IMG/VR virus record: IMGVR_UViG_3300012664_000377
Span: 1-37,534 of that record
Source of the DNA: a virus
Strand: one strand, 5' to 3'
Length of the DNA: 37,534 nucleotides
The notes beneath the pieces were generated by a model. The model saw only the letters and a list, made by a program, of their open reading frames with translations, made no database searches and was not told the DNA's origin. Shown in pieces: positions 1-37,534 of this stretch. The position numbers and the translations under genes were made by a program. Position 1 is the first letter of the stretch. Every line of letters starts with the position of its first letter.

Positions 1-51
1 TTTAATTCATTCTAAACTACACCCACCTATTGCGTAAAACAAAGCAATAGA
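1..51. repeat. Terminal direct repeat, copy 1 (identical to 37484..37534)
   Basis: The first 51 nt (tttaattcattctaaactacacccacctattgcgtaaaacaaagcaataga) recur exactly as the last 51 nt, so the unique unit is 37,483 bp. Confidence 0.95.
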
Positions 52-28181: not shown

Positions 28182-28517
28182 ATGAAAAATTTAGGAGCGT
28201 TTATATTACTTTATAATTTAGTTTGTATTTTAATAATGCAAACCAATTGGTATTCTAATAATTGGCAAATTATAGATAGTATAGACACTCCTTTTTACGT
28301 TGCATCCGCTATTATAGTGCTTTATATGTATCGTAAATTAAACGTTTTTCAAAAGCAATGTTATCTATTCGCTTTTATTTTTTTAGTGTTTAAACTAATC
28401 GATTTAAACTATCCTATTGATTATGTTAATTACAAGTTTTGGAGCATTTTAATAATCACAACACCGATTATATTACTAATTGAGCGAAATATAAATTATG
28501 ATAGGTTTAATAAATGA
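28182..28517 (+). CDS. multi-pass membrane protein (111 aa)
   Basis: Several hydrophobic helices. Lies in the lysis block. Confidence 0.55.
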   Translation: MKNLGAFILLYNLVCILIMQTNWYSNNWQIIDSIDTPFYVASAIIVLYMYRKLNVFQKQCYLFAFIFLVFKLIDLNYPIDYVNYKFWSILIITTPIILLIERNINYDRFNK

Positions 28518-28728
28518 TACCTTAAAGAATAAGGATAAATGGAGTCAAAAACGTTTACTAACTTTTAGTAGCTTTTTTGTTGCCACTTGTTATGCTTTTA
28601 TTCCAATTTTTTTACCTACTTTTGAAGTTAAAGAATTTGTTTTTTTGGGTTTCTTAGGAGTTGGTGGTTTTTCAATTTATAGAACACAAAAAACAAACGA
28701 AAATATTAATACTAATTTAGAACCATAA
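28498..28728 (+). CDS. membrane protein, 2 TM (76 aa)
   Basis: LLTFSSFFVATCYAFIPIFL and FVFLGFLGVGGFSIY. A size typical of holins or antiholins. Confidence 0.5.
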   Translation: MIGLINDTLKNKDKWSQKRLLTFSSFFVATCYAFIPIFLPTFEVKEFVFLGFLGVGGFSIYRTQKTNENINTNLEP

Positions 28729-28736
28729 TCCTTACT

Positions 28737-29051
28737 ATGGCAACAACAGACGAAAGATTGAAAGCACTCGAAGTTAAAGACGAAAGACGTGATTTACATA
28801 TTAAAGATATAAGAGAAAACGTTAAGAATATTGCTGAAATGCAAAAAGAAATATTAATAGTTTTAGGCGGTTCTGAACTAAACAAAAACAAAGGAGTTAT
28901 TTCGATGCTTGACGATGTGAAATCAAAAGTAGAGGGTTTACAAATTAAGTCTGAAAGCCATGCAAAGGATATTGATAGTGCTAAATGGTGGGGACGTGGA
29001 ATAGCTGGAGCGTTAATAATTACTATTTTTAAAATAATAACAGATAAATGA
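28737..29051 (+). CDS. coiled-coil protein with a C-terminal TM anchor (104 aa)
   Basis: Charged helical N-terminus and the C-terminal segment [18 protein letters not shown]-coupled to the endolysin gene. Confidence 0.5.
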
Positions 29052-29512
29052 TAACAACTACACAAGCTACTCAAAAATATGGTGTACCGAGTAAGAACCC
29101 AAACTATTTAACTACTTTAAATTTACCTTATCCAATGCGTTTATCTTGGGATAAAAACATTAAAGTAAATAAAATACAATGTCATAAATTAGTAGCTGAC
29201 AAATTAGGTAAAATATTTACCGAGTTATTAGAAGTTTATGGCTATGAAAAAATTGTTGAGTTAGGTATTGATTTATTTGGAGGTTGTTTTAACTTTCGTG
29301 CAATGCGTGGTGGAACTGCACCGAGTCGTCATAGTTGGGGAATAGCAATTGACCTTGACCCTGAAAGAAATCAATTAAAAGAAACATCAAAAACTGCAAG
29401 ATTTGCACGTGCTGAATATAAACAAATGATTGATATTTTCTATAAACACGGATTTATTAGTTTAGGGCGTGAAAAGAATTATGATTGGATGCATTTTGAG
29501 GTTAAGGATTAA
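29048..29512 (+). CDS. endolysin, LAS/M15-type zinc peptidase
   Basis: [12 protein letters not shown] (H-x6-D) and DWMHFE (distal His) are the zinc-ligand motifs of VanY / L-Ala-D-Glu peptidase-like enzymes. Confidence 0.85.
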
Positions 29513-29529
29513 TTTAGACTAATTATAAA
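29512..29529 (+). repeat. 18-nt direct repeat ATTTAGACTAATTATAAA, copy 1
   Basis: Identical to 29853..29870. It ends 36 nt before the -7 box of the tmRNA promoter. Confidence 0.95.
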
Positions 29530-29542
29530 TATTGCTTAAGGT

Positions 29543-29573
29543 ATTGTTTATTTGAAAATAAAAATTATATTTG
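29543..29573 (+). promoter_or_regulatory. promoter of the tmRNA-like gene (-33-like ATTG 29543..29546; -7 TATATTTG 29566..29573)
   Basis: Two-box match with a 19-nt spacer. Confidence 0.55.
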
Positions 29574-29577
29574 CATC

Positions 29578-29639
29578 AGTTCATTGACGTATTAATGAAA
29601 TCTATTTGGACGTGGGTTCGAATCCCACCGCCTCCACAA
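29578..29639 (+). ncRNA. tmRNA acceptor piece (P2 3' strand, T-arm, acceptor 3' strand)
   Basis: TCTATT-TGGAC-GTGGG-TTCGAAT-CCCAC-CGCCTCC-A-CAA. The 3' CCA is not fully encoded (CAA). The 5' end is inferred from the promoter. Confidence 0.65.
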
Positions 29640-29746
29640 CGCAAAACGTTTATAGTTTGATAAGTGGTCATACAAGTGATATATTGGGGGCGCACGGCAA
29701 TTGACAATAGAAAAGTAGGTAATATTGAGAACTAAAAAAAATAACC

Positions 29747-29794
29747 GCAAAAGTTATACAAATGAATACTACACCATTAAGAATGGCTGTATAA
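29747..29794 (+). other. candidate tmRNA tag reading frame AKVIQMNTTPLRMAV*
   Basis: The GCA resume codon is preceded by TAACC (compare E. coli UAGUC-GCA). There are 15 sense codons, the stop TAA is at 29792..29794, and the C-terminus is hydrophobic (MAV). The frame choice is tentative. Confidence 0.5.
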
Positions 29795-29818
29795 TTCCGT
29801 AAAAAGAACGAAATCTTT

Positions 29819-29852
29819 AAAACTCCTTAATTAACTTTAAGGAGTTTTCTTT
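29819..29852 (+). terminator. intrinsic terminator of the tmRNA-like gene
   Basis: AAAACTCCTTAA-TTAACT-TTAAGGAGTTTT forms a 12-bp stem and runs into TTTTCTTTATTT. Confidence 0.85.
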
Positions 29853-29870
29853 ATTTAGACTAATTATAAA
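29853..29870 (+). repeat. 18-nt direct repeat ATTTAGACTAATTATAAA, copy 2
   Basis: Identical to 29512..29529. It ends 35 nt before the -7 box at 29906. Confidence 0.95.
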
Positions 29871-29879
29871 CTACACCAT

Positions 29880-29913
29880 ATTGTTATTAATATCAAAATA
29901 AATGCTATATTTG
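29880..29913 (+). promoter_or_regulatory. promoter candidate for the small-ORF block (-33-like ATTG 29880..29883; -7 TATATTTG 29906..29913)
   Basis: Two-box match. The region from 29853 onward is a diverged copy of the tmRNA promoter region. Confidence 0.55.
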
Positions 29914-29933
29914 TGCTTATTAATTTAAAAGAA

Positions 29934-30338
29934 ATGGAAACTAAAAAATGTACTTGTTGTAAAAAAGAATATCCTAAAAATAATGATTACTTTTTTAAAA
30001 AAGTAGTCAAACAACAAAATAAAAGTGGATTAGCAATTTATCATTCATTTAGGTCTATTTGCAAAAGTTGTAATAATAAAAAAGGAGAGGAAAATAGAGT
30101 TAAAAAACGATGTAAAGAAATGAATTGTGATGTTTTAAATTATAGGGAAAATTGGAAAAAACAATATTCAGAAACAAGAACTAAATATAAAACAGAAACA
30201 ACAAAAAGTAAATACCATTCTAAAAACTTAACAGATACTTATATTAAACAATTATATCGTTCATTAAAAGTGCCTAAAGAAATGATTGAAACAAAAAGAT
30301 TATTAATTGAACTAAAAAGAACATTAAAAAATAACTAA
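29934..30338 (+). CDS. zinc-ribbon-like basic protein (134 aa)
   Basis: The start is moved to ATG 29934, because the track's GTG 29913 lies inside the -7 box. CTCC...CKSC cysteine pairs. Lys/Arg-rich. Confidence 0.6.
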   Translation: METKKCTCCKKEYPKNNDYFFKKVVKQQNKSGLAIYHSFRSICKSCNNKKGEENRVKKRCKEMNCDVLNYRENWKKQYSETRTKYKTETTKSKYHSKNLTDTYIKQLYRSLKVPKEMIETKRLLIELKRTLKNN

Positions 30339-30340
30339 TT

Positions 30341-30562
30341 ATGGAAGCTAAAAGAGATTTGAATTTTGAAGTAAAAAACGCAAAACAATTAAATGAAATG
30401 TTAACTGGTGTTTTAATGGATGTTAGACGTGGTAATATTGACCACGAAACAGTTAAAAGCATTACTCTTGTTGCAGATAAGATTAATAAAAACAATGTAA
30501 ATATGCTTGAGTATAAAAAATTAACCAAGCATAAAAAAGATATTAATTTTTTAGAAGATTAA
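30341..30562 (+). CDS. hypothetical protein (73 aa)
   Basis: ORF track. Confidence 0.6.
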   Translation: MEAKRDLNFEVKNAKQLNEMLTGVLMDVRRGNIDHETVKSITLVADKINKNNVNMLEYKKLTKHKKDINFLED

Positions 30563-30564
30563 CT

Positions 30565-30717
30565 ATGCCACCACCAAAGAAAACAACAACACGGGTAAAT
30601 ATAGTATTTATGCCTTATCAGAAGTCAAGTAAAAGTTATAGTTTTCACATAAACGAAAACTTAACCAAAGAAGAAAAAATAAAACAAATTAATCAATTTT
30701 TAAAAGAAGTGTTATGA
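30565..30717 (+). CDS. hypothetical small protein (50 aa)
   Basis: Hand-translated. Overlaps the next gene by ATGA. Confidence 0.4.
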   Translation: MPPPKKTTTRVNIVFMPYQKSSKSYSFHINENLTKEEKIKQINQFLKEVL

Positions 30718-30941
30718 AAGGAAATCTAAACGGGTTACAAGTTATTAATAAAAATCAATTTGAGAAAATATATTTTCTTCTTAGAAGTGCGAATACAATG
30801 AGTTTAAGCGAATGGTTAGAAAAATATAATATACCTAGCTTTCCAATATACTTAGAAAAAATAGGTTATTCATACGGATATACTACATATCCTAAATATG
30901 ATATAATTGAGTTTGATGAAAAATTACTAACCAAGAATTAA
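30714..30941 (+). CDS. hypothetical protein (75 aa)
   Basis: ORF track. Confidence 0.6.
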   Translation: MKGNLNGLQVINKNQFEKIYFLLRSANTMSLSEWLEKYNIPSFPIYLEKIGYSYGYTTYPKYDIIEFDEKLLTKN

Positions 30942-30951
30942 ATATAGAACT

Positions 30952-31230
30952 ATGATACTAACCGATAAATGCAAAGAGGAGTTTTTGAAAAATTATATGT
31001 TTGATAACGAAAGTTTTAATTATTATCCATCGATGTATCAAAACGCACTTATAATCGAGTTTTTTGATAATATTGGGCTTTATATTTTTATCGATAGGAG
31101 TTTCTTTTTTGATGATTGGTCTTGTAAAATAATAGGACATTATAAAGAAAATCATTTTAATTCACGCTCAGAAGCAACACAAAGCGCACTCACTAAGGCA
31201 AACGAAATTTTTAATAACTTAAATAAATAG
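30952..31230 (+). CDS. hypothetical protein (92 aa)
   Basis: ORF track. Confidence 0.6.
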   Translation: MILTDKCKEEFLKNYMFDNESFNYYPSMYQNALIIEFFDNIGLYIFIDRSFFFDDWSCKIIGHYKENHFNSRSEATQSALTKANEIFNNLNK

Positions 31231-36787: not shown

Positions 36788-37488
36788 GTTTAATGATTAC
36801 AAATGAGGATAATATGCTATTAATGGCTCGTTATCCTGATAACTATTTTGATTTAGCAATAGTTGATTTAGAATATGGAATAGGAGCAAGCAAACCAAGT
36901 ATTAAACCAAATACTGCAGTTCAAAAAAACGGAAATAAATTAAATATTAAACAGCCAAATTATGTTCCAAAAGATTGGGATTTTAAAAAAAGTGATGAAA
37001 ATTATCTTAATGAATTATTTCGTGTAAGTAAAAACCAAATAATATTTGGAGCTAACTATTATGGATTAGTTGGGGGCATGATTATTTGGGATAAATTGAA
37101 TGGAGAATCAGACCAAATGGATTGTGAAATTGCTTACTGCAGTTTAAATAATCGTTGTGATTTAGTTTATTTTATGTGGGCAGGAATGTTTCAAGGCATT
37201 TATTGCGGAAAAGATGTAAGAAAAGCGTTAACGCAACAAGGTAATAAACAACTAAACGAAAAAAGAATACACCCAACACAAAAACCAGTTGCATTATATA
37301 AATGGCTACTTGACAAATACGCTAAACAAGGCGATAAAATACTCGACACGCATTTAGGAAGCGGAAGTATTGCAATAGCTTGTCACGATTACGGATTTGA
37401 GCTAACTGCTTGTGAATTAGACAAAGAATATTACGACAAAGCAATTGAAAGAATAAAAAATCACGTTTCACAACAGAAGTTATTTTAA
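36784..37488 (+). CDS. DNA methyltransferase (beta-class N6A/N4C family) with a non-canonical motif IV
   Basis: HPTQKP...GDKILDTHLGSGS (AdoMet-binding motif I region) and ELDKEYY are typical of the N6_N4 MTase family. The N-terminal catalytic tetrapeptide position reads DLEY (36865..36876) instead of (D/N/S)PPY. Confidence 0.75.
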   Translation: MSLMITNEDNMLLMARYPDNYFDLAIVDLEYGIGASKPSIKPNTAVQKNGNKLNIKQPNYVPKDWDFKKSDENYLNELFRVSKNQIIFGANYYGLVGGMIIWDKLNGESDQMDCEIAYCSLNNRCDLVYFMWAGMFQGIYCGKDVRKALTQQGNKQLNEKRIHPTQKPVALYKWLLDKYAKQGDKILDTHLGSGSIAIACHDYGFELTACELDKEYYDKAIERIKNHVSQQKLF

Positions 37489-37534
37489 TTCATTCTAAAC
37501 TACACCCACCTATTGCGTAAAACAAAGCAATAGA
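37484..37534. repeat. Terminal direct repeat, copy 2 (identical to 1..51)
   Basis: Exact 51/51 match to the start of the window. Confidence 0.95.
37510..37533 (+). terminator. stem-loop CTATTGC-N10-GCAATAG after the methyltransferase stop (also at 27..50)
   Basis: 7-bp stem. The downstream sequence is ATTAATTTTG (only a weak T tract), and the hairpin overlaps the -33 region of the first promoter. Confidence 0.35.

Follow-up and report, generated by a model that had tools for sequence, protein, structure and literature searches.

A probable two-piece tmRNA gene in the complete genome of a small Bacteroidota-type siphophage

Does a small phage of the Bacteroidota encode a tmRNA of its own, and one made in two pieces? 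The question is raised by a stretch of 37,534 nucleotides of viral DNA (hereafter the window, meaning the whole stretch that was analysed), in which a sequence-only reading had placed a phage-encoded, permuted tmRNA gene. Standard tmRNA is present in 24,380 of 24,454 Bacteroidota genomes. That phages can carry tmRNAs is long established (PMC4131195), and the tmRNA database, with 97,179 sequences in all, holds 79 phage sequences as well as 48 permuted matches in Bacteroidota assemblies, 23 of them "beta" and 18 "alpha" (PMC11915505). Permuted tmRNAs have been published for the OM43 phage Melnitz, the Pelagibacter phages HTVC008M and Mosig, phiCbK-like phages of Caulobacter, and Synechococcus myophages (PMC9004378). 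Here we report that positions 29566-29852 of the window are very probably a self-contained transcription unit for a two-piece tmRNA, lying in a complete phage genome and presumably acting in trans-translation. The core of the earlier reading thus stands: ARAGORN and the Rfam model RF04321 agree with it, and homologues on other contigs covary and keep the tag frame.

At 37.5 kb and 29% GC, the window represents a complete circular phage genome, its ends overlapping exactly over 51 bp. Its genes all lie on the + strand and include those for a primase/helicase, a helicase, the small and large terminase, portal, major head protein, tape measure, endolysin, and a DNA methyltransferase, which bears out the view that the carrier is a phage. 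Neither an integrase or recombinase gene nor an SmpB gene was found among all listed + strand ORFs of at least 100 aa. The nearest nucleotide matches of the window are Flavobacterium phages, and the carrier is apparently a lytic siphophage of Flavobacterium type. The tmRNA unit adjoins the endolysin gene on its 3' side.

The features of the unit are collected in Table 1. They run in the order promoter, P2 strands, T arm, acceptor 3' strand, spacer, acceptor 5' strand, and D-loop analogue, followed by the P2 partner strands, a 13-nt linker, a 15-codon tag frame, and the terminator. The coordinates proposed from sequence for the T-arm/acceptor module, the GGGGGCG pairing, G3-U70, the D-loop analogue, and P2a were all verified. 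GGGGGCG (29686-29692) pairs with CGCCTCC (29629-29635) at 7 of 7 positions, with G3 opposite the U at 29633 (G3-U70), and sequence inspection upstream of the T arm found no 5' acceptor strand complementary to CGCCTCC. After the discriminator A the genome has no CCA; the letters there are CAA. P2a is given by the complementarity of AATAGA (29706-29711) to TCTATT (29601-29606), and the two further P2 complementarities that had been put forward tentatively were also found, at 29720-29725 with 29589-29594 and at 29729-29733 with 29578-29582.

Table 1. Features of the tmRNA unit and of the promoter block repeated downstream of it
Feature	Position	Strand	Remarks
Predicted promoter block, copy 1	29508-29573	+	Bacteroidota-type -7 box TAtaTTTG at 29566-29573
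Acceptor piece	29578-29636	+	Basis: RF04321 alignment, ARAGORN
P2 strands of acceptor piece	29578-29582, 29589-29594, 29601-29606	+
T-arm/acceptor module	29607-29639	+	TGGAC-GTGGG-TTCGAAT-CCCAC-CGCCTCC-A-CAA, read from sequence
GGAC linker	29608-29611	+
T arm	29612-29628	+	5-bp stem and 7-nt loop
Acceptor 3' strand CGCCTCC	29629-29635	+	Discriminator A at 29636
Intervening spacer	29637-29685	+	49 nt; presumably removed by processing, as judged from known two-piece tmRNAs
Acceptor 5' strand GGGGGCG	29686-29692	+	Coding piece starts here; its opening section is 29686-29705
D-loop analogue CACGGCAATTGAC	29693-29705	+	Ends in UUGACA
P2 partner strands	29706-29733	+	AATAGA 29706-29711, TAATAT 29720-29725, GAACT 29729-29733
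Linker with resume context AAAAAAAAUAACC	29734-29746	+	A-rich, single-stranded, 13 nt
Tag frame GCA...GTA TAA	29747-29794	+	15 codons, encodes AKVIQMNTTPLRMAV; stop TAA 29792-29794
Intrinsic terminator	29819-29852	+	12-bp stem (29819-29848), 6-nt loop, T-rich tail
Predicted promoter block, copy 2	29849-29913	+	Belongs to downstream gene block; right edge of 341-bp cassette

The frame running from GCA 29747 over 15 codons to TAA is present as proposed, and ARAGORN gives the same tag. It opens at a resume codon of the usual GCN or GGN type, with neither a start codon nor a Shine-Dalgarno sequence, and closes with a hydrophobic C-terminus. By our own arithmetic, a 15-codon open frame has a chance of roughly 0.3 in DNA of 29% GC and is not significant alone. 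The tag ends in ...MAV and not in ...AA, and its final GTA (Val) is one C-to-T transition away from GCA (Ala). The 13-nt linker leaves no space for the pseudoknot PK1, and downstream of the tag there is only the terminator. A promoter and terminator proper to the unit had also been claimed, and both were located (TAtaTTTG at 29566-29573; 12-bp stem at 29819-29848). The TAtaTTTG box ends 5-6 nt ahead of the RNA start; the + strand has 45 TAnnTTTG boxes where 22 would be expected. The terminator stem is a 100% complementary inverted repeat (I7), and 29819-29852 is the only terminator-like site in 28500-31000.

Detection programs agree that the gene is permuted. On the 37.5 kb, the permuted-mode search with ARAGORN that had been suggested gave one call, a permuted tmRNA (tmRNA*) with the tag AKVIQMNTTPLRMAV, and no tRNA gene. 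Among the Rfam 15 models, RF04321 (tmRNA_permuted) matches 29579-29794 with 60.5 bits (E = 1.8e-9) over its full length, model positions 1-213. The gathering threshold is 47 bits, 13 bits below this score, and no other Rfam model, including any riboswitch, gave an above-threshold match in the window. The suggested search with standard and lineage-specific models was borne out in part: RF04321 passed, but the alpha, beta, and cyanobacterial models did not. For RF01850 (beta_tmRNA), RF01849 (alpha_tmRNA), and RF01851 (cyano_tmRNA), with gathering thresholds of 84, 50, and 70 bits, nothing was reported from the window up to E = 10; a match to any of the three would lie below the overlapping partial match to the standard model RF00023. 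The latter is 3'-terminal (model 182-374) and scores 36.2 bits, under its gathering score of 47.

Homologous RNAs were sought by pattern, profile, and exact-sequence searches. A generic permuted-tmRNA pattern matched at least 118 IMG/VR contigs, on 109 of which ARAGORN calls a permuted tmRNA, and most of these contigs have tags of ANDxxxALAA type. A narrower family pattern matched 12 metagenome loci and 9 IMG/VR contigs, with no match in 185,579 species genomes. In all, ∼20 related permuted tmRNAs were found on phage-like contigs (L156/L212, L213, L205, L216, L207, L206, L208, L168, L170, L210, and L268-L272), which code for portal, head protease, helicase, and methyltransferase, and all homologues scored with Rfam exceed the RF04321 threshold. 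By nhmmer, the locus nearest to the window is L156, which lies on a 38-kb contig (E = 1.3e-9 over ∼250 nt). It was also recovered by an exact-sequence scan with TTGACANNAGANNAGTAGGTA, together with three chance matches inside coding sequence and nothing else; a scan with GGGGGCGCACGGCAATTGAC gave no match. Exact scans with the T-arm/acceptor 29-mer matched one-piece tmRNAs only, and when the tmRNA was compared by blastn with 50,697 phage records, the only matches were the size of the T arm. A match in the Polaribacter phage Leef_1, adjoining its integrase gene, was rejected: it is a chance similarity of AT-rich sequence, in which ARAGORN finds neither a tRNA nor a tmRNA.

The homologues have a common architecture, in which ∼33 nt of P2 strands lead through GGACG to the T arm, and the acceptor 3' strand, with an A after it, is followed by a spacer, GGGGnnG, the D-loop analogue, P2 partners with linker, the tag frame, and a hairpin. 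Spacers vary from 37 to 60 nt and are unconserved in sequence, and the distance from GAC to the resume codon is 37-45 nt in all ten homologues compared (exactly 41 nt in six). The window agrees with them in its 41-nt spacing and its resume context, AAUAACC before GCA AAA. A hairpin follows soon after the tag stop in all homologues, with a T run after it in most. Tags of the group are AKVIQMNTTPLRMAV (window), VKGNIFKMFTPQVRLAA, VKGKNNVIQFTPQVRLAA, GKTLFMPQRLSLAA, GKSISMTQPLLRAAA, GTIIPLFGTQLRAAA, GETPVLQMWSTGLRAAA, GKLIAFGRPAVKAAA, and GNSYQMKAAA; those of the homologues end in ...RLAA, ...RAAA or ...KAAA and that of the window in ...RMAV, and the conserved ending is ...R-[A/L/M]-A-[A/V]-stop. 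Between L212 and L213 the length of the tag frame changes by 3 nt, in frame, and the substitutions are synonymous.

Folding and covariation were assessed on the window and ten homologues. An unconstrained fold of 29579-29852 recovered the T arm, the acceptor stem, P2a, a hairpin at the stop codon, and the terminator, with an MFE of -57.5 kcal/mol (z = -2.14) and an equally good fold in 2 of 200 shuffles. The two-piece cofold, a further check that had been suggested, formed the acceptor stem, T arm, and P2a in the window at -30.1 kcal/mol, compared with -27.4 for the canonical three-helix structure. This MFE structure has a local hairpin in the acceptor piece, UUCAUUGA/UUAAUGAA, in place of outer P2, whose helices (P2b and P2c) are ∼2.7 kcal/mol weaker than the competing hairpin. 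The same alternative is seen in the genuine beta-type gene L092. Cofolding gave the T arm, an intermolecular acceptor stem, and P2a in 11 of 11 sequences and a three-helix P2 in 8 of 11; when only duplexes were allowed, a nested three-helix P2 formed in all 11, with z-scores that are modest across the set (-0.5 to -3.6; -2.0 for the window).

Covariation was read from alignment A1, which was made with MAFFT from ten sequences after their spacers had been taken out. The acceptor stem and the T arm are 100% paired in the 10 homologues, each with compensatory changes on both sides at 2 positions, G3-U70 is invariant in 10 of 10, and both-side changes occur at 5 of the 6 pairs of P2a. For the structure as a whole, 80.5% of the cells are paired, compared with 68.8% in shuffles, a value reached by none of 500 shuffles. 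The outer P2 helices are partly off register in the MAFFT set and ∼60% paired there, and P2 was therefore judged sequence by sequence, by the cofolding and duplex folding above, because MAFFT had misaligned them.

The gene sits in a slot that appears to have been filled in different ways. Copy 1 of the promoter block matches 29849-29913 (direct repeats D1/D2), the two ∼65-nt blocks being spaced 340-341 nt apart; copy 1 is the predicted promoter of the tmRNA and copy 2 that of the next gene block. No tmRNA was found near the endolysin gene in 80 IMG/VR loci with a related endolysin (up to 98% identity), and searches via the downstream ORF yielded no relatives. On four contigs (L004, L005, L006, and L007), the same slot is filled by other short promoter-terminator units, each insert finishing at a common TTTCTTTATTTAGACTAATTATAAA junction. 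The promoter block also lies 3' of the endolysin-proximal inserts on these four contigs, and in L006 the same variant of the block precedes a different insert. Since relatives lack the tmRNA and other units occupy the same slot, the gene is regarded as an accessory cassette in a mosaic slot. Its absence from the closest relatives (98% endolysin identity) shows that it is dispensable.

The sequence-only reading knew of one-piece tmRNAs in some large phages and of no permuted one in a phage of this kind. One-piece genes do occur in flavobacterial phages, but two-piece tmRNAs have already been published in phages too (PMC9004378), and the claim of novelty narrows to the divergent form in a small Bacteroidota-type siphophage, which seems not to have been described before. 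Because two-piece tmRNAs are already known in other phages, the gene is a divergent member and not a new kind of element. Like the window gene, the published phage examples are permuted ssrA genes encoded by the phage. They group with alpha or cyanobacterial lineages in the tree (PMC9004378), and the phage lineage type may differ from that of the host, Melnitz having an alpha-type tmRNA in a host of beta/gamma type (PMC9004378). Their carriers are large, mostly 90-320 kb, compared with 37.5 kb for the window, and the Melnitz tmRNA comes with a glutamine riboswitch, whereas the window gene stands alone as a promoter-terminator cassette, matches no riboswitch, and has a non-canonical tag. One-piece tmRNAs are found in the Bacteroidota phages Calle and phi38:1 of Cellulophaga, MA9V-3 of Chryseobacterium, and crAss-like phages. 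These share with the window the host phylum and resemble it in the tRNA-like domain (UUGACA in Calle, similar T arms), but their gene order is the standard one and those that were tested match the standard model; the phage genomes measure 72-103 kb, with 20 tRNAs in Calle. The sole earlier listing of a permuted tmRNA in a Bacteroidota phage that was found, in Cellulophaga phi4:1, spans three tRNA genes, has no RF04321 match, and appears to be an ARAGORN artefact.

That the window call might be of the same sort, with ARAGORN joining unrelated tRNA-like pieces and the covariance model matching AT-rich DNA marginally, is made conceivable by the phi4:1 case, which demonstrates that such artefacts occur. 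We consider this refuted by the comparative data and its residual probability negligible: no tRNA is called in the window, the Rfam match is full length and 13 bits over threshold, and homologues found by pattern independently show the same architecture, covariation, and tag. About as improbable, and close to refuted, is an attP-type fragment of a host ssrA 3' end with coincidental matches downstream, a possibility that the sequence-only reading had itself raised. tmRNA genes are often integration sites and ssrA 3' fragments are frequent in phages (established knowledge; PMC9004378), but the genome is complete and the + strand ORFs of at least 100 aa include no integrase or recombinase. The 29-mer occurs in 45 of 185,579 species genomes, most of them from other phyla, with one Bacteroidota MAG and no named Flavobacterium genome among them, and ARAGORN gives 36 one-piece and 0 permuted calls on these genomes. 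On these counts the refuting case named in that reading fails. The full permuted model is matched as well, and across the homologues the 5' strand of the acceptor stem, lying downstream, covaries with its 3' partner upstream.

More weight, albeit still little, is given to a decayed or repurposed copy in which the tRNA-like domain is intact and the mRNA function is lost, leaving a pseudogene or an SmpB-binding decoy that would damp host trans-translation. The main argument for such a copy is the tag ending in V and not A, joined by the weakness of the outer P2 helices relative to the local hairpin and by the absence of the cassette from the closest relatives. There is also a precedent in the mycobacteriophage DS6A, for whose tmRNA, made up of the tRNA-like domain only, such a decoy role has been proposed. 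This derivative is, like the window gene, reduced and without pseudoknots, and a DS6A-like molecule consisting of that domain strongly inhibits tmRNA (PMC4131195; PMC11915505). However, the tag reading frame is absent from DS6A, whereas the window gene retains a conserved resume context and tag frame. Resume context, 41-nt spacing, and the ...R-x-A-x-stop ending match the homologues, the frame is unbroken with a hairpin around its stop codon, and promoter and terminator are intact. These features make loss of the mRNA function unlikely.

As to lineage, the most likely origin is the beta-type two-piece lineage, of which the gene would be a divergent offshoot spread by phages. RF01850 is the best lineage-specific model for the relatives (42-54 bits), the alpha and cyanobacterial models giving only 32-34-bit cyano fragments in L268 and L269. 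The IMG/VR permuted genes to which ARAGORN assigns a tag fall into two classes by GAC-to-resume distance: most have 62-72 nt and nine have 36-45 nt, the short class taking in the genuine beta types L092, L107, and L115 (99-114 bits) at 41-42 nt. These three also have the UUGAC motif in the 5' region of the acceptor piece (UUGACG in L092). UUGAC occurs too in the genuine beta-type L096/L214 (116 bits). Further likenesses to the beta type are the gene order, the short tail with a terminator after the tag, and the resume context, which reads AUAAAC before GCA AAC in L092 and AUAAAU before GCA AAC in L115, compared with AAUAACC before GCA AAA in the window. The differences are that the window scores below 36 bits and the relatives 42-54, against the beta gathering score of 84, that beta-type tags read ANDE(T/S)FALAA and not AKVIQMNTTPLRMAV, and that the beta type sits in betaproteobacterial chromosomes, whereas this gene lies in a phage that has 29% GC and a Bacteroidota host.

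An origin by independent permutation of a Bacteroidota-type one-piece tmRNA, which would make the group a new permuted lineage and not a beta offshoot, is rather improbable. It would account for the UUGACA ending of the D-loop, which is also found in the one-piece genes of the L236 MAG, Cellulophaga phage Calle, and IMG/VR L001-L003, while 35 tmRNAs of other phyla have UCGAC instead. One-piece L002/L003 have the identical 29-mer and GGGGGCG..TTTTGACAAT, many group tags begin with G, like GNNYAMAA, no lineage-specific model is passed, and the family pattern is absent from the 185,579 species genomes. The similarity of L002/L003 and L236 is biased, because these were selected through the 29-mer search, and identity in the tRNA-like domain does not discriminate between the origins. 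Independent permutation was downgraded because UUGAC, including that of L096/L214, and the 41-nt spacing turned up in genuine beta-type genes, which share the resume context as well; beta is, besides, the best lineage model of the relatives. A wider proposal can be offered tentatively, as a whole and with odds somewhat against it: the window and its ∼20 relatives would form an unrecognised, phage-restricted lineage of minimal, pseudoknot-free two-piece tmRNAs, derived either from a fourth independent permutation (of a Bacteroidota-type one-piece gene) or from radical reduction of a beta type, moving between Bacteroidota phages as a promoter-terminator cassette, with tags in ...RMAV, ...RLAA, and ...KAAA that would redirect rescued polypeptides and not merely top up host trans-translation.

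Taking the unit as a functional two-piece tmRNA gene, host RNA polymerase would make one precursor from the TAnnTTTG promoter. RNase P would cleave 5' of G29686, a 3' nuclease would trim after A29636, and the CCA-adding enzyme would finish the end, the two RNA pieces remaining base-paired. Host AlaRS would charge the molecule via G3-U70, and host SmpB and EF-Tu would bring the charged RNA to ribosomes stalled on broken mRNAs, where translation would resume at GCA 29747 and add AKVIQMNTTPLRMAV. The likely benefit to the phage is added ribosome-rescue capacity during infection, as host ssrA transcription falls and mRNAs are cut. The tag is unlike the typical ...ALAA tags of the host, and proteins bearing it may meet a different fate.

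For the Bacteroidota, whose own tmRNA is nearly always one-piece, there is now a checked example of a phage with a two-piece tmRNA. The carrier is unusual, being a Bacteroidota-type siphophage of 37.5 kb that holds the gene as a swappable 341-bp cassette with a non-canonical tag. At ∼215 nt from the first P2 strand to the tag stop, and with no room for pseudoknots, the gene and its relatives are compact natural tmRNAs, which could help to set the minimal requirements for placing the resume codon. Because the slot is prone to swapping and close relatives are without the tmRNA, isogenic comparisons could test what a phage gains from a ribosome-rescue RNA of its own.

The mosaic slot that separates the endolysin gene from the next gene block differs in its contents, various short units occupying it among the relatives, including three related contigs that lack a tmRNA (L004, L005 and L006; see the table). 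Every short slot unit in the relatives has a TAnnTTTG box and a terminator, and these units are candidate small RNAs. An identical junction, TTTCTTTATTTAGACTAATTATAAA, bounds each slot unit and has the appearance of a module serving in recombination or as a promoter. The first open reading frame 3' of the cassette in the window encodes a Lys-rich product with CxxC...CxxC motifs; it had no Pfam or PHROG match, and a pattern search of IMG/VR yielded no relatives. The ends of the window are an exact direct repeat, and the window is an assembly closed as a circle of about 37,483 bp.

Positions of the features discussed
Feature	Sequence	Position	Remark
Slot	window	29508-29573 and 29849-29913	
Slot	L004	3468-3584	
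Slot	L006	3469-3770	
Slot	L005	3465-3533	
ORF	window	29913-30338	ATG probably at 29925; ~137 aa
Terminal repeat	window	1-51 = 37484-37534	51 bp
tRNA-Met	L213	114-188	
RF02979 match	L207	121-179	40.8 bits against a threshold of 72
ARAGORN call, phi4:1	L265 (KC821632)	40420-41081 (record 89919-90580)	662 nt

Cellulophaga phage phi4:1 has been entered as carrying a "permuted tmRNA" (PMC9004378 Table S1). The ARAGORN call in this phage covers tRNA-Tyr, tRNA-Ser and tRNA-Asn genes, and no match to the Rfam permuted tmRNA model RF04321 was found in the region; the entry is most likely a false positive. Permuted tmRNAs flanked by tRNA-Asn and tRNA-Leu were found within tRNA arrays of four IMG/VR contigs of 20-176 kb (L268, L269, L270 and L272), with the tags ADGEFALAA or ANDNFALAA. 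ARAGORN overlooked three of these array-embedded copies and misassigned that of L270 as a 474-nt tmRNA overlapping adjacent tRNA genes, and the L268 and L269 copies passed RF04321.

The IMG/VR permuted tmRNAs (L084-L201) show a bimodal spacing between the D-loop GAC and the resume codon, mostly 62-72 nt with a minority at 36-45 nt, and genuine beta_tmRNA (RF01850) matches are among the short class.

In the ~90 nt directly upstream of its tmRNA, the relative L212 (minus strand) carries a tRNA-like element (acceptor GGGGAAG...CTTCCCC, T loop GGTTCGAATCC) that was not called by ARAGORN; the equivalent position in L213 holds a tRNA-Met. In L207, the "freshwater-1" RNA model matches below its threshold ~280 nt upstream of the permuted tmRNA.

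A pseudoknot-like motif, CGCUAAC-CCGU-CGC-GUUAG-U-ACGG, is conserved in the spacer between the tmRNA pieces of five relatives (L212, minus strand; L213; L208; L205; L216) and is absent from the spacer of the window's own tmRNA. Stem 1 is formed by CUAAC/GUUAG and stem 2 by CCGU/ACGG, the latter altered to CGGC/GCCG in L216. The motif is possibly a processing signal.
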